Assembly: GCA_050633745.1 (NCBI GenBank)
Contig: JBOEHD010000040.1
Coordinates: forward strand, 1,435-65,434
DNA length: 64,000 bases
Reading direction: 5' to 3'
Source: Acidimicrobiales bacterium
GTDB lineage: Bacteria; Actinomycetota; Acidimicrobiia; Acidimicrobiales; SZUA-35
Under the pieces are notes generated by a model, which saw nothing but the letters and a program-made list of their open reading frames with translations, was not told where the DNA came from and searched no databases. A program made the position numbers and the translations under genes. This document shows positions 15,623 through 51,488 of the stretch, in pieces. The stretch's first letter is position 1. The number at the start of each line of letters is the position of its first letter.

Positions 15623-17005
15623 ATGTCAGACGACCCGCCGGTACCAGATTTCGTCGACACAGCCGAATTCCCCCTCGATGAGTTAAACCGCCAACTGCGG
15701 GCCCTGCCCCCGCCGGCAGTCCCTCTCGCGCCCGAAGATCCGCCCGACACGCTTTTTGGCCATACCCGCCACGTCACGCTCGGGCCACCAGCGGCGCCAG
15801 CGGCGGAAGACGGTGTCATTCTTGAGGGATCCGAGCGCACTTTCGCCGAGCGCATGCGGCCCACCAAGTCCATCGACAGCGTCAAGCTGTTCATGGCCAG
15901 CAGCCGAGACCACGCCTCGCCGCTGTATCGCAGGCAGGGCACACTGGCGGCCCTTGGTCTGTGTGTGCTGGCCGGGATCGTCGTTTTCTCGTTCCCCCGA
16001 TCGAGTCAGTCGTTGAGTTCCGATGTGCAAGTCCGGACAGAGACCATCGACCCGGCCGGCCCGATCGGGGCGGGCAACGAGTCTGACTCCATCGATGTGC
16101 TCGGCAAAGGTAAGACCTTCGATGCTGCAACCCCCGCTGCCTCGACCAGCCAAACAGCGCCGGACCCCACGGCCGCTCCCTCGCCAAGCGGCCAAAGCGC
16201 TTCGCAACAACCTGAGCGTTCCCAACTGCCAACCGAGATCGCCGCTCCGGCCGCCGTCGAACCTTCAACCACCGCTTCGACACCTGTGGTTGAGCCGACC
16301 GAGCCGCCAACCTCAGCGCCACTAGCCAGCACCACCGCGCTGCCGACCGTTTCGACCACCGCCCCAACGCTTGCGACAACAGCCACAACCCAACCGACGA
16401 CACGGCCAACCACGACAACGACCAGGCGGGCCACCACCAGCACCTTCACCGTCCGGATCTCGACGACGACGAATCGTCGACCGACGACTACTCCAACCAC
16501 CGTCCGCTCTTCCAGTTCGAGCACGGCGGCAACAACAACGACAAGACCGACAACAAGACCAACGACGCGGCCGACGACAACGAGACGGCCGACCACCACC
16601 ACACGACCAACCACTACAACGACGACAAGACCTACGACGACAAGGCCTACGACGACAACAAGCGACTCGACCACGACCACATCTACGTCGACGACCACCT
16701 CTACCTCAACCAGCAGCAGCACGAGCACGACGGCCTCGACGGTGGTGACGACCTCAACAACCGAGGGTCCGATCGAGGTGACAACCAGCCAACCGCCGGT
16801 GGCCAACTGCACGCCGATCACCACCACCACCCGACTCATTACTCTGCTCCCACCGCGGCCGACTACGACCGAGTGCCCGCCGATCGAGACGCTGCCTCCG
16901 CGAGGCAGAGAGGGGGCGACCGCCTCTCCCGACGTCACCAGCAGATCGACTACCAGGTCGACACTTAGTTCGACCGCCGACGGCGTTTCCGGCGATCTCG
17001 ACTAG
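15623..17005 (+). CDS. Membrane-anchored Thr/Pro/Ser-rich low-complexity protein (hypothetical, mucin-like ectodomain)
   Basis: The N-terminal roughly 110 aa is followed by a TM helix (LAALGLCVLAGIVVFSF). Then comes a long A/P/T/S-rich region with TTRPTT repeats and a Cys-containing C-terminus. The opposite-strand V-rich ORF is a shadow. Confidence 0.6.
   Translation: MSDDPPVPDFVDTAEFPLDELNRQLRALPPPAVPLAPEDPPDTLFGHTRHVTLGPPAAPAAEDGVILEGSERTFAERMRPTKSIDSVKLFMASSRDHASPLYRRQGTLAALGLCVLAGIVVFSFPRSSQSLSSDVQVRTETIDPAGPIGAGNESDSIDVLGKGKTFDAATPAASTSQTAPDPTAAPSPSGQSASQQPERSQLPTEIAAPAAVEPSTTASTPVVEPTEPPTSAPLASTTALPTVSTTAPTLATTATTQPTTRPTTTTTRRATTSTFTVRISTTTNRRPTTTPTTVRSSSSSTAATTTTRPTTRPTTRPTTTRRPTTTTRPTTTTTTRPTTTRPTTTTSDSTTTTSTSTTTSTSTSSSTSTTASTVVTTSTTEGPIEVTTSQPPVANCTPITTTTRLITLLPPRPTTTECPPIETLPPRGREGATASPDVTSRSTTRSTLSSTADGVSGDLD
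16370..16763 (+). repeat. Coding low-complexity repeat (ACG/ACC/ACA-rich, encodes TTRPTT and TSTSTT runs)
   Basis: The encoded peptide reads TTTRPTTRPTTRPTTTRRPTTTTRPTTTTTTRPTTTRPTTTTSDSTTTTSTSTTTSTSTSSSTSTT. Confidence 0.7.
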
Positions 17006-38725: not shown

Positions 38726-40732
38726 CTAGTCTCCGGCGGTTAGGAACTCGTCGGTGTTAAGCACCACAACCTTCGCTCCTCGACTTCTGGCTAGCTCCAC
38801 CATGTCTGCCGTTCCCCCTGGCCCGTCGCCTGCGGCACGGTTCCACAGGGCGAGGAGGGTCACGTCGGCGTTCTCTATGGCAAATGCCTTTTCCAACATC
38901 CACATGTTGCAGCGCTGGAACACGTAGTGCTTGTCGGCGGCGCTGACCCAAGTCGGCATCGGTTCGTCGAGAACGTCGGGGTTCAACTCGGTGCAGAGCC
39001 TGCGAAACCGTTCCGGCCACGTTCCGCCGCTGCCATCTACAGAGCGTTGAAGAAACTGACCTTCGGGCAGGGCTAGCACCGCTTCGGTCTCGAGGCCGAG
39101 CTCAGCGGCCACCTCGTGGAACAAGATATCGTTGCCGCTGGCCAAGCCAGCGATCCCGCTCACGGCCCCATCGGCATAGGATCTTTCTTCCTCGATCGCC
39201 GCGGCCAGCGCCGCTCTGGCGGCCGTTTCAGCTGCGGCGGGGAAACGGGGCTGCGCTCGTCCCGGATCATCGATCCGGTGACCGGTTGACACGATGATCC
39301 GCTTCCGCGGCTCGGCCGCGACAGGAATCGGCGGCACACCCGCAACCAGATCATCATCGGGCACACCGAGGGCTGCCAGGCTGGCGGCGGCCTTCTCCGA
39401 GCAGATGTCTAGGCGTTTGAAGAGAAGAAGTTGGGCCGCGGCCGATGCAATGTTGAAGTCCGCCTTTGTGCGCGCCGTTGCATCTCGGTAGCCCTGGGCA
39501 ACATGCTCGACCCGGTCTGAAGTCAGGAAACGGTGATCAGCGATACTGAGGTCAAGCCAGAGGTCGGTCTCGCCGGAGCGACGAGCACGGGCCTTAGCGG
39601 CGTCATGAGCTAACGCGGTAGCCGACAGTAGTTGTTCGCGCCGAGAGGTTTGGCGGCGCAGGTGGCTCGCCGCATCGTCTTCATCCTCGAACCGAGCCTC
39701 CCAGACATCGGGGTACCGCCCCGCTAGTTCGAGCAGGATCGTGCTCATCGATAGGGCGTTAACACCCGGATAGTAGTGGTTGATATCTTCAAGAAACCCC
39801 GCCCGGTATGCGGTTAGACAATCGAGCAACTGCGCCGATCGTAAGGCCTGGCGTTGCTGTTCAATAGGGTCATCGACAGCGATCCACTCGGCAGTCCACT
39901 GTGTCTTGTGGTTCCGTGCCCGCAGAGCCAAAGCTTCAGCCCGATCGACTCTGGACGCCTCGCCATTGGTGACCCGGGCGATCGCCTCCTCCGAGCGCGC
40001 CATGTCGCCAGCCCGGTGGTAGATGGTGGCAAGCGCCAGGTTCGCTTCAACATCATCGGGTCGCGCCGTTCGCACCCTTTCCCAGGTCGCTCCGGCTCCG
40101 GTGTGGGCCTGCAACTTTGAAAGCGCCTGGCCGACGAGACGTTGACCGGCGAGATTCCAGCGCTCAACTCGTGCCTCGTCGCCGAGTAAACCCAGCTGCC
40201 CGACCCGCTTGTTTTTGCGTGCTCGCTCGACCGCCTCGATGAACTCCCGAGGTGTGCTGAGGTATGCGACTCCGTCGCGCCGCTCCAGGCTGGGGATCAG
40301 CTGGTAGACCGGACTGTCGGTGTTGTCGCTCTTGAGCGTCGCTTCGATCGTTCGGCTCAACTCATTGCGAGATGTCTCCGGATCGTTTGGGTCGTAGCGA
40401 AGATACCGGTCGGTCTTGAGGTCAAAGGGCACCGCATCGACTCTGCTGTTGATCAGAATCGTTGGGCGGTGGCGTAGCGCATGCCGCACCCCGAGTTCGT
40501 AGTAGACGTTGGCGTTGTGAATAGAGATGTCGGCGATCACCAAGTCGGCGGTGAGCAGCCGCTCCATCATGTCGGCCCGGATATTGCCCGATTCGACTAT
40601 CGGTCCAGTGGTTCCCCATTCGGTGTCCGGCCGCTCGTCGAGGACCGGTTTGATGATCTGGTCTTCCACTCGGTCGAAGTCCACCCCGCTCTTCTCACCG
40701 AACGGTCTGACGATAAAAACGTAGGTCTGCAT
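38726..40732 (-). CDS. Three-region conflict-system-like protein: N-terminal TIR/nucleoside-deoxyribosyltransferase-like Rossmannoid domain (DUF4071-like), helical TPR-like middle, C-terminal SLOG (DprA/LOG-like) domain
   Basis: N-terminus: MQTYVFIVRPFGEKSG...DLVIADISIHNANVYYELGVRHALRHRPTILI (beta-strand/Gly loop, conserved Glu79). Middle: helical repeats (NLALATIYHRAGDMARSEEAIARV, INHYYPGVNALSM). C-terminus (aa 477-662): RIIVSTGHR...SGIAGLASGNDILFHE...GDGPGGTADMVELARSRGAKVVVL. These resemble the DprA GLAxGID and LOG PGGxGTxxE motifs. The start lies 9 nt after the patatin stop. Confidence 0.8.
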   Translation of the reverse strand: MQTYVFIVRPFGEKSGVDFDRVEDQIIKPVLDERPDTEWGTTGPIVESGNIRADMMERLLTADLVIADISIHNANVYYELGVRHALRHRPTILINSRVDAVPFDLKTDRYLRYDPNDPETSRNELSRTIEATLKSDNTDSPVYQLIPSLERRDGVAYLSTPREFIEAVERARKNKRVGQLGLLGDEARVERWNLAGQRLVGQALSKLQAHTGAGATWERVRTARPDDVEANLALATIYHRAGDMARSEEAIARVTNGEASRVDRAEALALRARNHKTQWTAEWIAVDDPIEQQRQALRSAQLLDCLTAYRAGFLEDINHYYPGVNALSMSTILLELAGRYPDVWEARFEDEDDAASHLRRQTSRREQLLSATALAHDAAKARARRSGETDLWLDLSIADHRFLTSDRVEHVAQGYRDATARTKADFNIASAAAQLLLFKRLDICSEKAAASLAALGVPDDDLVAGVPPIPVAAEPRKRIIVSTGHRIDDPGRAQPRFPAAAETAARAALAAAIEEERSYADGAVSGIAGLASGNDILFHEVAAELGLETEAVLALPEGQFLQRSVDGSGGTWPERFRRLCTELNPDVLDEPMPTWVSAADKHYVFQRCNMWMLEKAFAIENADVTLLALWNRAAGDGPGGTADMVELARSRGAKVVVLNTDEFLTAGD

Positions 40733-40741
40733 GTCACCGAC

Positions 40742-41929
40742 TCAGCTGTGTATTGGCAGGTCGACAAAGCGCCCGAAGTGCGCAAGGTCGACGTCGTGGG
40801 CCAGGTTCTTGCCGATGCGGGTGAGATCGGGCATGGCATCGACCGAATCGAGAGCGCTTACGTCGTCGGCTTTGATATCGCCCAAACCCCGCTCGGCTAG
40901 CCAGGCGTCGGTGAGGGTGGCGTTGTACCTGGCATAGAGGAAATCTCGGTCCTGGTCGTCCTCGAGCGGTAGCGGGTTGCCTGCACCATCCTTGGGGATC
41001 AAGTCACCGACTTCGTTGTCGATGTGGTCTCCGGTGGTGCAGCGACCGACGGTTCGAGCGTTGACGTCCTGGTCGTAGGCGGCCTGGCTCATAAGCGAAC
41101 TGAGCGTATTGACCGCAGACGAGGCCAGGTTCGATTCGGGGTCATCGATGGACGCGCCAAGGGTGGCGGCCGAGCCGGTACCGAGCGAAACGACCAGAAG
41201 GTTTCGTTCACCCTTCTGCCAGCCGAGGTTGTATGCCGGTTCGGTGGCCATCCGAGCCATCAGGAACGCTGGGTTGTTGTAGGTCGTCGTGCCGCCGTCG
41301 ACGAAGACGAACGCCTTGTTGTCGTTGCCCTCTTCCCAGTAGATGACCTCGGGCGGAAAGTACACCGGTGCGGCGGTGCTGGCTCGAACCAGTTTCCATA
41401 GCGGCACGTTGAGGTTGCAGTCTGGCCTGTCAACGTCGTTGTACTTGGCAGCGGGGTTGCTGGTCACCGGCCAGGCGGAGTCGGTGGTCGCATTGCGGGT
41501 GACGACCAGCAACAGCGACTTCAGATCCTGAGGGTGCAGTGTCGATTCGCTGCCGTAGACCTCTTTTAGCTTCTGCTCCAGGGGTCCGTTCTGGTAGAGG
41601 GCGTTCCAGATCTTCCAGCGGCGGCGGGTGAACACCACCTGACCGAACGCCTCGTAGAACTCTAAGATCTCGGCCACTGAAAGGCCTCGCGCCACGCCGG
41701 CGGCGATGATGGCGCCGGTACTGGTGCCGGAGACGTAGTCGAAGAACTGACACAACCGAAGATCGGGCTCGTTGTAGTGCGCCCGTAGTTGACTCTCGAT
41801 TTCCTGGAGCACCTGCAGGGTCAAGATCCCTCGAATCCCGCCCCCGTCGAGAGCAAGCATGCGACGAGGTTGATCGACCTCATATCGTGCTCGCAGACCC
41901 CCCCACTGCTCTGGTTGTTCTAGCGCCAT
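40742..41929 (-). CDS. Patatin-like phospholipase with about 120-aa acidic C-terminal extension
   Basis: The oxyanion loop DGGGIRG (aa 28-34), nucleophile elbow GTSTG (Ser70) and catalytic Asp in FVDGGTTTYNNP (Asp211) are all intact. A strong SD (AGGAGG) lies 5 nt upstream of ATG 41929. Confidence 0.9.
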   Translation of the reverse strand: MALEQPEQWGGLRARYEVDQPRRMLALDGGGIRGILTLQVLQEIESQLRAHYNEPDLRLCQFFDYVSGTSTGAIIAAGVARGLSVAEILEFYEAFGQVVFTRRRWKIWNALYQNGPLEQKLKEVYGSESTLHPQDLKSLLLVVTRNATTDSAWPVTSNPAAKYNDVDRPDCNLNVPLWKLVRASTAAPVYFPPEVIYWEEGNDNKAFVFVDGGTTTYNNPAFLMARMATEPAYNLGWQKGERNLLVVSLGTGSAATLGASIDDPESNLASSAVNTLSSLMSQAAYDQDVNARTVGRCTTGDHIDNEVGDLIPKDGAGNPLPLEDDQDRDFLYARYNATLTDAWLAERGLGDIKADDVSALDSVDAMPDLTRIGKNLAHDVDLAHFGRFVDLPIHS

Positions 41930-41986
41930 TTGCCCCTCCTGCTTCAGTCGCTAATGCCTATAGTCGTGCTCATCGGTGCCGGTTGC

Positions 41987-42043
41987 TGGTGTTCAGTGTG
42001 TGGTGTTCGGTGTGTGGTGTTCCGTCTGTGGTGAATTTCTGTG
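41987..42043. repeat. 14-bp tandem direct repeat, 3 good copies plus 1 degenerate copy, in the divergent intergenic region
   Basis: TGGTGTTCAGTGTG / TGGTGTTCGGTGTG / TGGTGTTCCGTCTG / TGGTGAATTTCTGTG. Confidence 0.85.
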
Positions 42044-42073
42044 TTTGGGCGATAGCCCGAACCGGTCGACGCA

Positions 42074-42093
42074 CAGATTGTGGCAGATTGCGG
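42074..42093. repeat. 10-bp tandem duplication in the same intergenic region
   Basis: CAGATTGTGG / CAGATTGCGG. Confidence 0.75.
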
Positions 42094-42180
42094 CGCTGTC
42101 TGCTCATGCTGGTGTCTCTGTCTTGAGCTCGGCATACCGGGGGAACCACCTGTTCCAGCGATCCTGACTACCATCAGCCA

Positions 42181-43149
42181 TTGGTGGTAGGAACAGCGGA
42201 ACCGCAGGCCGAAGCGAATAGGGTGCTCGACCACGTCTGGGAGCGTCAGCGTGGCTGGTCGATCGGCGCCGACCTGGCGAAGGCTCAGGTCGAGAGGGCC
42301 CGCATCGGCAACCTGCTACTCATCGTCGGAGCTGCGGTCTTCGGTGCGCTTGCGGCCCAATCCGACTGGCTACCTTCCGGCTTCCAGCGAGGCCTCAGTC
42401 TGGCCGCCTCTGTCCTGCTGATGGTGGCCGGGTTTGTGCAAAGCCACTATCTGACCGCCCTGAAGGTCAAAGCCTGGACCGCAGCCCGGAGCGCTTCGGA
42501 GACGCTGAAGGCCCTCGTCTATGTGTACATGGCTGGCGTGAGCGTCGATACGAGCTCAGACAACAGCCACGAAGAAAGCCAGGTCGACGCTGCGCTGTTG
42601 GACCAGCTGACGATGGTGGAGAGCCGGGCATTTGTGCTCGGAGCCAACCGAGCCGACCCAGATAACAAACCGCTGCCAACCGTCGCCAGCGTTCCCGACT
42701 ACCGTGCCAACCGCACCGAGGAGCAGGCCCAGTGGCACAGCACCCGGCGAGGCGAGCACGACCGGCGAGCGAGGTTACTGCGAGCTGCCCAGCTTGGGCT
42801 GACGGTACTCGGTTCGGTCCTTGCGCTGATCGCCGGCGTCTCCGCCCAACCGGGGATCGATTCCTGGGTCGCCGCGGTCGCCGCCATGGGGGCAGCTGTG
42901 GCCGCCCACCTTGGAGCCACCCAGTACGACCGCATCGCTCAGAGCTATGAGGTCACCGCAACCCTGCTCGAACGGGAAGTGGTTCGGTTCGACTCACTGC
43001 AGCAACGGTCCGCGACAGCGGTCGACGAGGGTGCTGGTCTGATCGGCGGCAATGCCGGCCAAACCCTCGTCCGCAATACCGAGGAGATCCTGGCCAGGCA
43101 GAACGATGGCTGGATCGACCTGATCCAAAAGGCAACCGAGCCGAACTAG
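42181..43149 (+). CDS. Membrane protein with two tandem SLATT-like (DUF4231-like) 2TM modules
   Basis: Module 1: TM IGNLLLIVGAAVFGALAA, TM LSLAASVLLMVAGFVQSHYL, then helix KAWTAARSASETLKALVYVYMAG. Module 2: YRANRTEEQAQWHSTRRGEHDRRARLLRAAQLGLTVLGSVLALIAGV, TM WVAAVAAMGAAVAAHLGA, then helix YDRIAQSYEVTATLLEREVVRF. The start is uncertain (TTG 42181, GTG 42184 or GTG 42223). Confidence 0.7.
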   Translation: MVVGTAEPQAEANRVLDHVWERQRGWSIGADLAKAQVERARIGNLLLIVGAAVFGALAAQSDWLPSGFQRGLSLAASVLLMVAGFVQSHYLTALKVKAWTAARSASETLKALVYVYMAGVSVDTSSDNSHEESQVDAALLDQLTMVESRAFVLGANRADPDNKPLPTVASVPDYRANRTEEQAQWHSTRRGEHDRRARLLRAAQLGLTVLGSVLALIAGVSAQPGIDSWVAAVAAMGAAVAAHLGATQYDRIAQSYEVTATLLEREVVRFDSLQQRSATAVDEGAGLIGGNAGQTLVRNTEEILARQNDGWIDLIQKATEPN

Positions 43150-43213: not shown

Positions 43214-43855
43214 ATGGAACTTGGCGATGCTATAAAGACCGCGGTGACCTCTCGGTACTACACCGATGAACCGGTCACAGACGAACAACTGCGAACGGCG
43301 TTCGACTACGCCCGATACGCACCTCAGGGTGGCAACCGTCAGCCGGTTCGATTCATAGTCGTGCGTGACCAGGACACCAGAAACCAATTGGCGGAGTGGT
43401 ATCGGGTCCCGTGGAAGGCGTACCTCGAAGGGGCCCGTGGCGGCGAGATCGACATCGGCGCCGAGAAGCTCGACCGTGCCTTGCGCAACGCCGACCATTT
43501 CGCAGATCACCTGCAAGACGTTCCCGTGATGGTCATCGCCTGCGCTCATCTCGACGGCGTTCATCCCACCGATACCGAACTTGAGCGTCTGTCGGTTGTG
43601 GGTGGCGGCTCGATCTACCCGGCGGTGCAGAACTTTTTGCTCGGCTGCCGTGAGAGCGGAATCGGTGCTGCGCTAACCACGCTGCTTTGTATGTTCGAAC
43701 CGCAGGTCAAGGAGCTGCTGTCGATCCCCGACGACGTGATCACCGCCGCTCATATCGCGGTTGGGCACCGGCCGAAGGACTTCCCAAAGAAGCTCGATCG
43801 CATCGGGCTCGACGAGGTCGTGTACAGCGACACCTGGGGCAACTCCACATACTGA
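43214..43855 (+). CDS. Nitroreductase family protein
   Basis: AIKTAVTSRYYTDEPVTDEQLRTAFDYARYAPQGGNRQPVRFIVVRD is the typical nitroreductase N-terminal FMN-binding segment. Confidence 0.85.
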   Translation: MELGDAIKTAVTSRYYTDEPVTDEQLRTAFDYARYAPQGGNRQPVRFIVVRDQDTRNQLAEWYRVPWKAYLEGARGGEIDIGAEKLDRALRNADHFADHLQDVPVMVIACAHLDGVHPTDTELERLSVVGGGSIYPAVQNFLLGCRESGIGAALTTLLCMFEPQVKELLSIPDDVITAAHIAVGHRPKDFPKKLDRIGLDEVVYSDTWGNSTY

Positions 43856-43954
43856 AGTCGCTCCAACGTGACCCGGTTCACCTCAAGCTTGACGGCCAAT
43901 TTGCCGATGCGAAGTGAAGGTAAAAAGTTTCACTTAGCTGAAAGGTAAAACCGA

Positions 43955-44398
43955 ATGGCCGAGGAGAATCTAGTCCATTGCATCTACACCAGTTCGCTGA
44001 CCGCAGGGTACGACAGCAGCGAGCTCGACCTCATCTTGAAGAAGGCTAGGCACAACAACGAAGCGCTCGACGTCAGCGGCATGCTGCTGTTCGATGAGGG
44101 CTCCTTTTTTCAGATCCTCGAGGGCGAAGAGCCGAACGTCATGACTCTTTTCGAGAAGATCTCGCTCGACGAACGCCACGAACATATGGTGAAGATCATC
44201 TTCGAGCCGATCGAGGAACGCTCCTTCTACAACTGGAGTATGGGCGTCGCTCATATGACCCGACAGGAGCTGGCAGCGGTTCCCGGACTCAACGACTTCT
44301 TCGCAGACGGCAACAGCCTGGCCCAGCTTGACGCGGGCAGGGCCAAGAGCCTCTTGGCGGCCTTTCGCGATGGGCGCTACCGCTCCGCCATCAACTAA
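43955..44398 (+). CDS. Stand-alone BLUF domain blue-light photoreceptor
   Basis: In LVHCIYTSS...VSGMLLFDEGSFFQILEGEE...DERHEHMVKII...FYNWSMG, the conserved Tyr, Gln and Trp/Met positions of BLUF are all present. Confidence 0.85.
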   Translation: MAEENLVHCIYTSSLTAGYDSSELDLILKKARHNNEALDVSGMLLFDEGSFFQILEGEEPNVMTLFEKISLDERHEHMVKIIFEPIEERSFYNWSMGVAHMTRQELAAVPGLNDFFADGNSLAQLDAGRAKSLLAAFRDGRYRSAIN

Positions 44399-46210: not shown

Positions 46211-47368
46211 TTAGATACGCCCGGCGGCGATCTCAGCCCCCTGGGCCAGTGATGCCAGTTTGGCCCAGGCCACATCGGGGTCAATCCCCGACAAACCGAC
46301 ATGCACACTGAATCCGCAATCGACCCCGGCCATGATCCGATCTCTGCCGACGATCCGGCCGTAACGTTCGATTCGTTGAGCTACCAGTTCAGGATGTTCG
46401 ATGTAGTTCGACTGCGGCTCAATGACACCGGGACACAGCACCTTGTCGTCTGGAATATCGATCTCCTCGAAGACCTTCCATTCGTGAGCGTGGCGGGGAT
46501 TTGCCGCTTCGAACAGCACGGTCTGAGGCTTTGCGGCCCACACAAGGTCGATCAGGTCAGCGATATCGACATCGTGATGATGGGGGCCCGGATAGTTGCC
46601 CCAGCAAAGATGCATGCGTAACTGTTCGGCGGGGATGTTTCGAACTCCATAGTTCAGCGCCTCGATGTTCAGCGCAGCCCGCTTGCGGTAGGTCTCCCGA
46701 TCAAGGTCGGCGTACACGGTGTGGCGCCCCATACCGAGGTCGGGGCAGTCGAGTTGCACAGTGGCCCCGGTCGCGGCGATCGCCTCGTACTCGTGGCGCA
46801 TCGCTTCGGCGATGGCGAACAGGTATTCCTCATCGCTGGCGTAGTAGTCGTTGCCGAAGAAGAGCGAGACGACTCCGGGCGAAGCGGCACTGGAAAACGT
46901 CCCATCCACCTCGGCCACCGCGGCGGCATTGCTCAGGTTCACCATGTCGGTGGCCGCGGCAGTCTCGTCTTTGACCGAGATCGGACCGGTACAGGCCGGC
47001 GCCGAACGTTTTCTACGACCGGGATTGTCGGCCACCATCTCAGCGCTGCGGGGAAAGTCGACTAGGTCTTGGAAGAAGTAATTCTGGATCGACTCGCCCG
47101 CGAAGCCATCGAGGCGATCTTTCACATAGGTCGCGTAGCTTGGCTTGGACATCTCACCATCATTGACGATCGACAGGCCAGCCTCGCTCTGCCGACGCAC
47201 ACACTCGGTGACCGCCTCAGCAACTCGTTCAGCTATCGCTGCATCGTCGACCGGAATGCCATCTTCTCGAGCCCAGATCATCTGGATCAGATCATCGGGC
47301 CGAGGCAGGCTGCCGGTGTGGGTCGTGAGGATGCTGTTGCGGCCGTTCTCATTCGTAGCGCTTGCCAT
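46211..47368 (-). CDS. Cobalamin-independent methionine synthase (MetE C-terminal domain)-like methyltransferase
   Basis: The N-terminus ILTTHTGSLPRPDDL, the UROD/MetE-like barrel and the C-terminal GVDCGF Zn-ligand context are present. Confidence 0.8.
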   Translation of the reverse strand: MASATNENGRNSILTTHTGSLPRPDDLIQMIWAREDGIPVDDAAIAERVAEAVTECVRRQSEAGLSIVNDGEMSKPSYATYVKDRLDGFAGESIQNYFFQDLVDFPRSAEMVADNPGRRKRSAPACTGPISVKDETAAATDMVNLSNAAAVAEVDGTFSSAASPGVVSLFFGNDYYASDEEYLFAIAEAMRHEYEAIAATGATVQLDCPDLGMGRHTVYADLDRETYRKRAALNIEALNYGVRNIPAEQLRMHLCWGNYPGPHHHDVDIADLIDLVWAAKPQTVLFEAANPRHAHEWKVFEEIDIPDDKVLCPGVIEPQSNYIEHPELVAQRIERYGRIVGRDRIMAGVDCGFSVHVGLSGIDPDVAWAKLASLAQGAEIAAGRI

Positions 47369-47379
47369 GAGGTCTTAGA

Positions 47380-48420
47380 GTGACACAGATGCAGACACAA
47401 ATCACCACAACGGTCATGGGCAGCTACCCGCAGCCGGGTTGGCTTGTCGACCGAGATCACCTGATTGGCAAGGGTGTTCCTCGGGTCAGGGCCAACGATC
47501 TCTGGAAGGTCGCCGAGCAAGACCTAAGCGAAGCGGTCGAGGCCGCGACGCTTGTAGCGATCGCCGACCAGGAAGCGGCGGGAGTCGACATCATCACCGA
47601 TGGCGAGATCGGTCGGGAGTCGTACTTCAACCACTTCGCCAATTCGCTTGGCGGCGTCGACCAAGATCAGATTGGCACCGGCATCAATCGGGTCGGCACC
47701 AAAAGCAAAGTGCCGTTGGTCAACGGGCCGATCGAGCGGCAGGCCCCGATCGAACTCGAATCTGCTCGTTTTCTCCGCGCTCACACCACCCACAGAACGA
47801 AGGTCACGGTCCCCGGGCCGTTCACCCTTAGCCAACTGGCCCAGAACGACTACTACCCGGACCAGCGCTCGCTGGCCATGGCCTATGCTGCGGCGGTCCG
47901 GGCAGAACTACTCGATCTCCAGGCTGCGGGCATCGACATGTTGCAGATCGACGAGCCCTATATGCAAGCCAACGCCGACGCCGCCAGGGAGTTCGCGGTG
48001 GAAGCGATTGCGATGGCGCTCGAAGGTGTCGAGGCGCCAACAACGGTTCACACCTGCTACGGCTACGCCCAGTACGTCAAAGACAAATCCATCGGCTACC
48101 CGTTCTTCACCGAACTGGCGCAGATCCCAGCCGACTTTATTGCCATCGAAACCGCCCAGCCCGATCTAGCTCCGTCGGTGGTCGCCGAGCTAGCACCACG
48201 GGGTGTGGTGATGGGCGTACTAGATCTCAGCACAAACGAGATCGAGCAGCCCGAGCAGATCGCGTCCAGGATCCGGTCTGCGATCGAATACATCGCCCCC
48301 GAATCGCTGTCGGTGTCGCCGGACTGCGGGCTCAAGTTCCTCCCCCGCCCAATCGCTCAAAGGAAGATGGCGGCCATGGTCGAGGGAGCATCCATCGTCA
48401 GAGCGGAGCTCGGCGGCTGA
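47380..48420 (+). CDS. Cobalamin-independent methionine synthase (MetE C-terminal domain)-like methyltransferase
   Basis: TTTVMGSYPQPGWL, DIITDGEIGRESY, a HTCYG segment and SPDCGLKF (Zn-binding His/Cys contexts) are present. An alternative ATG lies at 47389. Confidence 0.8.
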   Translation: MTQMQTQITTTVMGSYPQPGWLVDRDHLIGKGVPRVRANDLWKVAEQDLSEAVEAATLVAIADQEAAGVDIITDGEIGRESYFNHFANSLGGVDQDQIGTGINRVGTKSKVPLVNGPIERQAPIELESARFLRAHTTHRTKVTVPGPFTLSQLAQNDYYPDQRSLAMAYAAAVRAELLDLQAAGIDMLQIDEPYMQANADAAREFAVEAIAMALEGVEAPTTVHTCYGYAQYVKDKSIGYPFFTELAQIPADFIAIETAQPDLAPSVVAELAPRGVVMGVLDLSTNEIEQPEQIASRIRSAIEYIAPESLSVSPDCGLKFLPRPIAQRKMAAMVEGASIVRAELGG

Positions 48421-49730: not shown

Positions 49731-51488
49731 GTGAACCTACGCGTTGTACCGATCGGACTGCGGCTGGTGATGGCCGTGTCGGTGCCGGTCGTAGCGCTTC
49801 TGATCGCCATCGGGTTCCAGGTCAACGCTCGCTCGGTGACCGCCCGTGAGGCCACAGACGAGCTGACTCGCATCGAGACCCTCGAGACCCTGGCGACGCT
49901 GCAGACAGCCAGCGTGCTGCCCGACCTAGGCGTCCTGCGACAGGAGATGAGCGCCGAAGGCAACGGTTCGTTCTTAATCGAGATGGTCGTGAGCGGCTAC
50001 GGGGAAATGCTAGGCGGCGCCTACCTCGGCGCCGACGATGCCCGGGCCGAAATGAGCGTCGCCGCCAGCGGCAACATCACCGCCGAGGCCGAACAGGTCT
50101 TCGATCGTCAACGAGAGACGTCGGAAGCCCTGCTGGAGACCTTCGTTGGTGGGCAACCCCTTACCGATGAGCTGATCGCCGACGCTGAGCTGGCCCGTAT
50201 GGAAGCCGACCTGGCGTTCGCCGAACTGGCCGTCGGATCGGCGTCCGATGCATGGATCACCTACATCGGGGCGATCGATGCCGGCCGTTCCACCGCTGTC
50301 GAATACGCCTACGTGATGTCGAGCCTGATCGGACTCGGAGCTATCGACGAAGCACGCCTCGCCGAGCTGGGCGGGATCCGATCCAACGCCACCCAACGAG
50401 TGATCATGGGCCTCCAGCCAGACCTGCAGATCCAGGTGCAAAATGTGCTGACGTCGGACTCGATGGACGTGTGGGACGCTGCCGTTGCAGCCGCGCGAGA
50501 GATCGTGGCAGGCAGAGCTGAACCGTGGCAGATCAACGACGTGGCCACACTCACCGGCGACGCTTTCCAGCTACAACTGCAAATCGACACGATTACCGCT
50601 GAAGCGGTCGACCGGGTACGAAGCGAGCTTGTCACGGTCGAGACCGACGCCAAGAGCGAGCGGACCCGTCTTCTGCTGCTAGCAGCTGCGCTGCTTGCCA
50701 TCACCGCCGGGCTGACCGTCTGGATTCTGCAGTCGGTGATGTCGCCGCTGCGGCGTCTGACCAAGCGAGCCGCTGAGCTTGCCGACGGGGAAATCGACGG
50801 CCCCCGGGTCGACCATGGACGCCACGATGCCCTCGCGGAGTTAGGCGAAACCATCGAAGACGTCGCCGAAGGGCTCCGACACCTCGGGCAGCAATTCGAA
50901 GCGATGGCCGAAGGAAACCTCGATGACGTCAGCCTGGAATCGGCGGGCCCCGGTTTCGTTGGCGAATTTGTACAGGACTGGGTGCAAGAGGTCCGCCAAG
51001 CCAGCGACGCCCTAACCGCCGAGGCACTTCACGATGAACTAACCGGCTTGTTGAATCGCCGTGGTCTTATGAGGCACCTCGGACGGATGGCCGGGGGGCC
51101 AGAGGTCGCTGTTGTCTATGTCGATCTCGACAAGTTCAAGGCGGTCAACGACCAGCACGGCCACCATGCGGGCGACGCGGTACTCAAGGTGATCGGCCAG
51201 CGACTGCTGGGCTTTGTCCGAACAGAAGACCCGGTCTGTCGTCTCGGTGGCGATGAGTTCGTGCTCTTGGTTTCGGGCGTCGACCGACAAGATATGCCAA
51301 TCTTTATCAGCAGAATCGAACTGGGACTGTCGGAACCAATCTCCTTTGAAGGCACGCGTCACAGCGTTGGGTGCTCGGTCGGCGTCGGCTGGCTTGGCCC
51401 CGGCGACCTTCTCGAACCGATTCTGGAAGAGGCCGATCGAGCCATGCTCGAGGTCAAGTCGCGACGCGGCGAGTCAATCCCCCGCTAG
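49731..51488 (+). CDS. Membrane sensor diguanylate cyclase (periplasmic-type sensor region, HAMP, GGDEF)
   Basis: Two TM segments flank a roughly 280-aa extracytoplasmic region. A HAMP-like linker follows (MSPLRRLTKRAAELADGEI). The GGDEF domain carries HDELTGLLNRRG and RLGGDEFVLL. Confidence 0.9.
   Translation: MNLRVVPIGLRLVMAVSVPVVALLIAIGFQVNARSVTAREATDELTRIETLETLATLQTASVLPDLGVLRQEMSAEGNGSFLIEMVVSGYGEMLGGAYLGADDARAEMSVAASGNITAEAEQVFDRQRETSEALLETFVGGQPLTDELIADAELARMEADLAFAELAVGSASDAWITYIGAIDAGRSTAVEYAYVMSSLIGLGAIDEARLAELGGIRSNATQRVIMGLQPDLQIQVQNVLTSDSMDVWDAAVAAAREIVAGRAEPWQINDVATLTGDAFQLQLQIDTITAEAVDRVRSELVTVETDAKSERTRLLLLAAALLAITAGLTVWILQSVMSPLRRLTKRAAELADGEIDGPRVDHGRHDALAELGETIEDVAEGLRHLGQQFEAMAEGNLDDVSLESAGPGFVGEFVQDWVQEVRQASDALTAEALHDELTGLLNRRGLMRHLGRMAGGPEVAVVYVDLDKFKAVNDQHGHHAGDAVLKVIGQRLLGFVRTEDPVCRLGGDEFVLLVSGVDRQDMPIFISRIELGLSEPISFEGTRHSVGCSVGVGWLGPGDLLEPILEEADRAMLEVKSRRGESIPR

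Follow-up and report, generated by a model that had tools for sequence, protein, structure and literature searches.

A double-SLATT membrane protein linked to a TPR-S protein family beside a patatin: a candidate anti-phage cluster in an Acidimicrobiales genome

What could a membrane protein built of two SLATT-type modules do beside a patatin-like phospholipase and a large tetratricopeptide repeat (TPR) protein, at a locus with no TIR gene? The question is raised by a stretch of 64,000 nucleotides (hereafter, the window) of the Acidimicrobiales bacterium assembly GCA_050633745.1 (contig JBOEHD010000040.1, positions 1,435 to 65,434 of the forward strand). The gene concerned occupies 42181..43149 on the plus strand of the window. 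With its TTG start codon, the open reading frame (ORF) encodes 322 amino acids (aa); translation from an alternative GTG codon at 42184 yields the 321 aa of the database form (P0001). No other ORF of the window belongs to the SLATT family. The SLATT clan (Pfam SLATT_1-6 and DUF4231) is reportedly a group of effector domains with two transmembrane helices (2TM), delineated by Burroughs et al. in 2015. The initial annotation had read the gene as a tandem duplication of SLATT-like 2TM modules; what it observed in the ORF was confirmed by our analysis, and its SLATT interpretation was supported. We consider it fairly probable that the double-SLATT gene, the patatin gene, and the gene of a 668-aa protein constitute a three-gene candidate anti-phage abortive-infection cluster, in which the 668-aa protein would be the sensor and the double-SLATT protein would be a pore-forming effector acting together with the patatin.

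Both halves of the double-SLATT protein were matched by Pfam profiles above the curated cut-offs. The N module (aa 31-120; 42271..42540, plus strand) was recognised by DUF4231 (PF14015, a member of the SLATT clan) (56.6 bits; cut-off, 24.7), and SLATT_3 overlapped the same region below its own cut-off. The C module (aa 174-311; 42700..43113, plus strand) was recognised by SLATT_1 (PF18181) with 66.1 bits against 26.3, and the alignment spans profile positions 1-122 of 122. The NCBIfam SLATT_1 model (NF033634) scored 81.1 bits on the C module (cut-off 41). By these profile matches, the assignment of the ORF to the SLATT family is solid. The N and C halves had no significant BLASTP similarity (best E value 0.027), and a recent duplication of the SLATT module was rejected for this reason. 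The profiles of the two halves, built with 100 relatives, were aligned by hhalign in register over 108 columns with a probability of 95.2% and an E value of 2.7e-8. Since the halves are homologous at the profile level and not by BLASTP, the duplication is read as ancient. The proposed tandem duplication is therefore upheld as a real internal duplication, judged from profile homology, and abandoned as a recent event.

The membrane topology was evaluated by Kyte-Doolittle (KD) hydropathy with a 19-residue window and a threshold of 1.5. Four transmembrane (TM) segments were predicted on the plus strand: TM1 (aa 42-60; 42304..42360; KD peak 1.91), TM2 (aa 68-86; 42382..42438; 1.59), TM3 (aa 202-220; 42784..42840; 1.95), and TM4 (aa 229-247; 42865..42921; 1.52). 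These peaks fall within a few residues of the two helix pairs that had been claimed, and four peaks above the threshold were obtained in just 1.6% of 2,000 composition-preserving shuffles (shuffle mean 0.97). The AlphaFold2 model, computed from a 100-sequence alignment with a predicted local distance difference test (pLDDT) score of 92.8 and a predicted template modelling (pTM) score of 0.88, is all-helical and comprises two equivalent four-helix modules. Module 1 consists of helices H9-58, H66-90, H93-117, and H132-152, and module 2 of H171-221, H226-247, H249-281, and H288-319; TM1 and TM3 lie within the first helix of each module (H9-58 and H171-221), and TM2 and TM4 correspond to H66-90 and H226-247. 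The claimed amphipathic helix after each TM pair was also found, with moderate amphipathicity (maximum hydrophobic moments of 0.42 and 0.46). The loops inside the hairpins are 7-8 residues long and carry neither Lys nor Arg, and all basic residues are located in the N-terminus, the 115-residue linker, and the C-terminus. As the basic residues lie outside the inter-TM loops, the sequence fits a predicted N-in/C-in topology. A Foldseek search of the model against the PDB gave no match at E ≤ 1e-3 (the best were TM domains of ABC transporters with a TM-score of 0.23), and a sequence profile search of the PDB gave 0 matches.

Both modules have the layout of the SLATT clan, with a cytoplasmic lead-in helix carrying Q-x-x-W-Y/H, a 2TM hairpin, and two cytoplasmic helices after it. 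Residue conservation was counted in 100 family representatives. The C module starts with the lead-in Y174-x3-R178-x3-Q182-x2-W185-H186 (42700..42738, plus strand); the YRANRTEEQAQWH lead-in noticed earlier before the second TM pair is thus real and conserved, with Y174 in 99, R178 in 100, and Q182 in 99 representatives and an aromatic residue at position 185 in all 100. The lead-in of the N module, W20-x-x-Q23-x-x-W26-S27 (42238..42261, plus strand), is conserved in 94, 70, 95, and 89 representatives at W20, Q23, W26, and S27, respectively, and shares the Q-x-x-W pattern in register with that of the C module. In both halves, the Q-x-x-aromatic lead-in is located approximately 16-17 residues ahead of the first TM helix. 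The invariant cytoplasmic residues R103, E107, K110, R178, Q182, E301, N308, and W311 may make up an interface with a ligand or partner.

When 1.84 billion cluster representatives were searched exhaustively with the family profile, there were 1,480 relatives of the double-SLATT protein at E ≤ 1e-3, 653 at E ≤ 1e-10, and 118 at E ≤ 1e-30. The best 150 of them were mostly 285-320 aa long and matched end to end. Since DUF4231 and SLATT_1 were both present in 100/100 sampled family representatives, the two-module build is normal for this branch rather than peculiar to the window; the DUF4231+SLATT_1 architecture is already catalogued and common. The family consists of inner-membrane proteins with a length of roughly 300 aa.

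The double-SLATT protein is strongly linked, by gene fusion and gene adjacency, to the family of the 668-aa protein (38726..40732, minus strand; hereafter, the partner). Two proteins belonging to two distant lineages, P0006 (997 aa) and P0030 (987 aa), are fusions of a full-length partner homologue (38-40% identity; E values of 1e-142 and 4e-136, respectively) with a following DUF4231+SLATT_1 part. Short single-module SLATT genes are located directly downstream of partner homologues in loci L022 and L065, and their products resemble the C module more than the N module. On the contig of P0013, the double-SLATT gene adjoins a gene for a 644-aa TPR-S protein, and the context in L088 includes a TPR protein. 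In L086, the double-SLATT is accompanied by a MAP3K_TRAF_bd+TPR-S protein, LSDAT, TIR_2, and a TPR-S-trypsin protein. The order TIR, nSTAND1-WD40, double-SLATT was found in L091, and the order TIR-SIR2, nSTAND1, double-SLATT, directly followed by a convergent patatin, in L090; the fusion P0006 lies in L004 beside LSDAT, TIR_2, and a DUF4062-NACHT-WD40 pair. Double-SLATTs thus occur in TIR, STAND, SIR2, and LSDAT neighbourhoods, which are a defence context. The gene had been expected to depend on the pair of patatin and SLOG genes; it is indeed tied to its neighbours by fusion and adjacency, with TPR-S or TIR/STAND proteins, and not patatin, as the consistent partner. The real functional partner of the double-SLATT is the 668-aa protein, not the patatin as such.

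Two loci of this family stood out. Geodermatophilus telluris DSM 45421 (L078, 8255..13118) carries a TIR_2 gene, a partner homologue, and a double-SLATT gene 10 nt downstream of the latter. The segment 6919..9847 of L090 contains patatin and lipoxygenase genes right after the TIR-SIR2/nSTAND1/double-SLATT run, a second double-SLATT beside a lipid-acting enzyme.

The partner family comprises at least 1,783 protein clusters, and 427 matches were confirmed in a collection of species-representative genomes. Gene neighbourhoods were counted in the best 80 of these 427 partner loci. A closely related patatin was directly adjacent in 58/80, and any SLATT gene was present in just 4/80. According to these counts, the patatin and the partner form the common core; SLATT serves as an effector in place of the patatin or beside it, and it is rare for a locus to have both, as the window does. 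Other neighbours included TIR_2 (L020, L025, and L057), DUF4062-iSTAND (L009), and an α/β-hydrolase lipase (L071), and no recurrent third gene beyond patatin and SLATT was found among the partner loci. The patatin-partner pair is widespread, occurring in Acidobacteriota, Nitrospirota, Actinomycetota, Myxococcota, and others. A PADLOC scan of the proteins of the pair gave weak or generic effector matches only. In L052 (1059..3908) and seven related Pyrinomonadaceae loci, an ORF of approximately 950 aa lies upstream of the pair; it appears to contain a TPR region and a patatin-like GGGFR motif and may be a TPR-patatin fusion.

The AlphaFold2 model of the partner (pLDDT 88.9) was divided into three parts. 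TPR-S was the one domain recognised by Pfam (aa 213-329; 39746..40096, minus strand; 42.4 bits against a cut-off of 27.6), and it is located inside a helical solenoid of approximately aa 160-455, supported by Foldseek matches to TPR proteins. In the Foldseek search of the whole 668-aa model, TPR proteins (SPY and OGT) dominated and the end domains were not resolved. The N-terminal α/β domain (aa 1-135; 40328..40732, minus strand) was delimited from the model topology and the invariant columns, and carries the invariant motif ADxSxxNANVxYELGxRHA, in which the glutamate of YELG is E79. Over the YELG motif, it weakly matched Nuc_deoxyrib_tr (E value 0.11, sub-threshold), and the domain is probably deoxyribosyltransferase/DrHyd-like. 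Members of the nucleoside 2-deoxyribosyltransferase (DrHyd) superfamily have a flavodoxin-like α/β domain whose catalytic Glu belongs to an x-E-x-G motif behind the central strand. It is clearly homologous to the N-terminal domain of the MAP3K_TRAF_bd+TPR-S protein of L086 (hhalign probability 99.3%). The sole TIR-related match of the partner was to the PADLOC TIR-effector model (E value 1.5e-7), and hhalign detected no similarity between its N-terminal domain and TIR_2 proteins, a weak test with single-sequence targets. The C-terminal α/β domain (aa 477-668; 38729..39304, minus strand, delimited from the model) contains the motifs G-x-A-G-x-x-x-G-x-D and G-D-G-P-G-G-T with the invariant residues G533, D535, G639, and G640. 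Its matches to SLOG-superfamily profiles were sub-threshold (DprA, 0.12 and 0.17; YAcAr, 0.05; ShosA, 0.026), and the comparison with two LSDAT proteins by hhalign was negative, again a weak test with single-sequence targets. The SLOG superfamily is characterised by a Rossmannoid α/β domain having a glycine-rich loop behind strand 1 and a GGxGT-type motif. The partner domain is probably SLOG-like; the α/β topology and the motifs are present, and the SLOG label that had been claimed is based on the sub-threshold matches only.

The patatin-like phospholipase (395 aa; 40742..41929, minus strand) was identified with 102 bits against a Pfam Patatin cut-off of 27.7. As read from the sequence, its catalytic motifs are intact, including the oxyanion loop GGGxRG (G29-G-G-I-R-G34), the GxSxG serine motif G68-T-S70-T-G72, and the aspartate motif D211-G-G. 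It matched PADLOC models of CBASS-type phospholipase effectors (E value 3.7e-42; CBASS, cyclic oligonucleotide-based antiphage signaling system) and scored 114 bits with the NCBIfam CBASS_lipase model (CapV equivalog), below the cut-off of 200. Because the partner gene starts 9 nt past the patatin stop codon, these two genes are considered to form an operon. The patatin and SLATT genes are separated by a divergent intergenic region of 251 bp (41930..42180) delimited by the ORF coordinates, which presumably holds the promoters; a scan for sigma-70 and terminator consensus sequences found no sites there, such a consensus being uninformative for a genome with 62% GC.

The divergent patatin/SLATT arrangement was kept in relatives with 64% and 58% SLATT identity. 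When the window was compared with L001 (P0155; GCA_041156825.1), the flanks were 80-90% and the patatin 88% identical, against 63% for SLATT and 67% for the partner. This pattern suggests co-evolution or diversifying selection, as would be expected of fast-changing immune components. Directly downstream of SLATT, a nitroreductase gene and a short gene for a BLUF blue-light sensor occupy 43214..44398 on the plus strand. Both are 86-90% identical in relatives and are probably an unrelated housekeeping or sensory pair. The remaining flanks of the cluster include luciferase-like oxidoreductases (Bac_luciferase), a CoA-transferase, and an amidohydrolase.

Several known systems provide a framework for this cluster. 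With the SLATT clan, the double-SLATT protein shares the above-threshold profiles, the 2TM hairpin, the Q-x-x-W/Y lead-in, and the association with TIR/SLOG-type nucleotide domains, and it differs in nothing essential, the DUF4231+SLATT_1 pair being standard for the branch. The association with SMODS-, SLOG-, or TIR-type nucleotide-signalling genes was seen as fusion or adjacency to the TPR-S/SLOG-like protein and as TIR_2, LSDAT, and SIR2 neighbours in L004, L086, L090, and L091. In type VII Thoeris, cyclic ADP-ribose (cADPR) made by TIR activates the SLATT effector ThsH, with protection against phage, and the type VIII effector ThsI (BcTpr) is described as 'CMP hydrolase + TPR'; a SLATT effector and the TPR-containing ThsI are rarely in one operon (bioRxiv 10.64898/2025.12.03.692087). 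By description, the double-SLATT resembles ThsH in being a membrane effector of the SLATT type within a system of the NAD+-signalling kind, and the partner resembles ThsI in combining an N-terminal, probably deoxyribosyltransferase-like domain with a TPR-S core. The layouts of L078 and L086 are similar to the reported shared operons of types VII and VIII, and partner homologues adjoin TIR_2 genes in L078 as well as in the three loci named above. However, a TIR (ThsB) gene is lacking from the window cluster, and the partner differs from ThsI in its extra C-terminal SLOG-like domain of approximately 190 aa and in pairing with patatin, not TIR, in most genomes.

Similarity to CBASS with CapV or 2TM effectors consists in the fit of the patatin to phospholipase effector models and in the logic of signal-activated membrane damage, whereas the window has no CD-NTase/SMODS gene and the patatin stays under the CapV equivalog cut-off. 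STAND NTPase-TIR-SLATT systems have also been described (Kaur et al. 2020, PMC7159879). The double-SLATT family follows TIR and nSTAND1 genes in L090 and L091 in the same manner, while the window has neither a STAND NTPase nor TIR and the TPR-S protein stands in that place. The assemblies 'Patatin-Tpr', 'YspA-Tpr', and 'LSDAT-Tpr' are listed in a 2023 preprint (bioRxiv 10.1101/2023.05.26.542521); in the literature searched on the patatin and TPR-S pair, nothing was found beyond this brief 'Patatin-Tpr' mention, and no experimental study. The DrHyd superfamily reportedly includes NADase effectors and ADP-ribosyl cyclases (PMC9503650). Because it spans NADases and cyclases, it is conceivable that the partner makes the signal, consumes a nucleotide, or only senses.

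The best reading of the window cluster is a TIR-less relative of Thoeris VII/VIII-type signalling with two membrane-directed effectors. We infer a defence role in which the 668-aa protein would be the sensor and signalling hub for infection and would activate the membrane effectors via an NAD+- or nucleotide-derived ligand or by direct contact. This scheme is patterned on type VII Thoeris, whose logic is backed by experiment, and on type VIII with its TPR effector. The double-SLATT, as a covalent pseudo-dimer, would then oligomerise or open and depolarise the membrane; its capacity to form a pore and permeabilise membranes is assumed by analogy with the family. The patatin, if it cooperates, would break down phospholipids, and cell death or arrest would precede phage release. 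As a rather unlikely variant, the system may be self-contained without TIR: the DrHyd-like domain itself would make an NAD+-derived messenger, or the partner would gate the pore by contact, so that the double-SLATT would be a ligand-gated pore co-evolving with its sensor and the patatin a second effector acting in parallel.

A number of observations weigh against the defence cluster as proposed. No TIR, CD-NTase (SMODS), or STAND genes were found in the three cluster genes or the six scanned flanks, whose functions are metabolic or sensory. SLATT is encoded on the strand opposite to that of the patatin and partner genes. The profile matches of both end domains of the partner, deoxyribosyltransferase/DrHyd-like and SLOG-like, are sub-threshold. 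Since no solved structure resembles the SLATT model, pore formation has no checkable structural precedent. The contrast in divergence rates of SLATT and the partner comes from two related genomes only. Finally, SLATT is scarce among the partner loci, and the prevalence of loci with patatin only indicates that the core pair can do without it, so that it could be an independent accessory.

The last point leads to the explanation that the adjacency is coincidental and the SLATT gene works on its own, as a single-gene or trans-acting module, beside an autonomous patatin-partner system. The pair is self-contained in most genomes, with patatin and no SLATT in 58/80 loci and without a third gene that recurs. 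In addition, SLATT is transcribed divergently, and the double-SLATT family is found in many other contexts. Yet two independent fusions and one tight operon join the same two families, L022 and L065 have single SLATTs after their partner homologues, and three lineages have retained the arrangement at SLATT identities of 58-64%; we therefore regard coincidence as improbable. A role of the double-SLATT as a membrane anchor, scaffold, or brake for the 668-aa protein and the patatin, instead of a killing pore, is also unlikely, if slightly less so. In the fusions P0006 and P0030, the soluble partner is joined directly to the membrane module of SLATT, patatin requires access to the membrane, the partner and SLATT co-diverge, and the conserved SLATT residues are all cytoplasmic and polar, as in a protein or ligand interface. 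An anchor would, however, have no patatin to hold in L078, L022, L065, and the fusions, where no other effector was called adjacent. Moreover, related SLATT proteins suffice as effectors in type VII Thoeris, and SLATT is last in the TIR-STAND run in L090 and L091, the expected position of an effector, a point qualified by the SIR2 fused to the TIR protein and the patatin immediately downstream in L090.

The genes downstream of SLATT raise the alternative of a role outside defence; the protein might, for instance, be a channel gated by nucleotides that acts in stress or light signalling together with the nitroreductase and BLUF proteins. On one and the same strand, SLATT precedes the nitroreductase gene by 64 bp, and L001 and L003 have retained the gene order SLATT, nitroreductase, BLUF. 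Nevertheless, the nitroreductase and BLUF genes behave as conserved flanks (86-90% identity, against 58-63% for SLATT), and their linkage to SLATT was seen in no other family context examined, the neighbourhoods elsewhere being of the TIR, STAND, and TPR-S types. Such a role is highly improbable, and an abortive-infection cluster with the 668-aa protein as the proposed sensor remains the preferred reading.

Other features of the window were recorded as well. A horizontally acquired island was not supported, as the GC content over 38-43 kb (0.61-0.645) is equal to that of the flanks. Two divergent back-to-back MetE-like (Meth_synt_2) genes are located at 46211..48420 and are also present in L001. 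The gene at 15623..17005 (plus strand) encodes a 460-aa low-complexity protein rich in Thr, Pro, and Ser, with TTTRPTT-type repeats and one hydrophobic segment, and it accounts for the GC- and AT-skew spike at 16-17 kb. The ORF at 49731..51488 (plus strand; 585 aa) has N-terminal TM segments and a C-terminal RLGGDEF motif in its translation and probably encodes a diguanylate cyclase.

The annotation of the double-SLATT is in itself ordinary, as it is a clear family member of the standard two-module build, and its association with TPR-S, SLOG, and TIR systems has already been described computationally. What sets the window apart is that a TIR gene is lacking and that two putative membrane effectors accompany a single putative sensor. 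The value of the finding lies in its context, since fusion and adjacency tie the double-SLATT to a large deoxyribosyltransferase-like/TPR-S/SLOG-like family that is usually paired with patatin. If the self-contained TIR-less variant were true, it would be a further example of the little-studied systems in which one sensor serves two effectors and would give a function to the widespread uncharacterised pair of patatin and TPR-S protein. The window lineage is a rare natural case with both membrane effectors and a compact three-gene test bed for the activation of effectors by TPR-S proteins, the need for a diffusible signal where TIR is absent, and the structure of a putative SLATT pore, and the cultured actinobacterium Geodermatophilus telluris (L078) would be a tractable experimental model.

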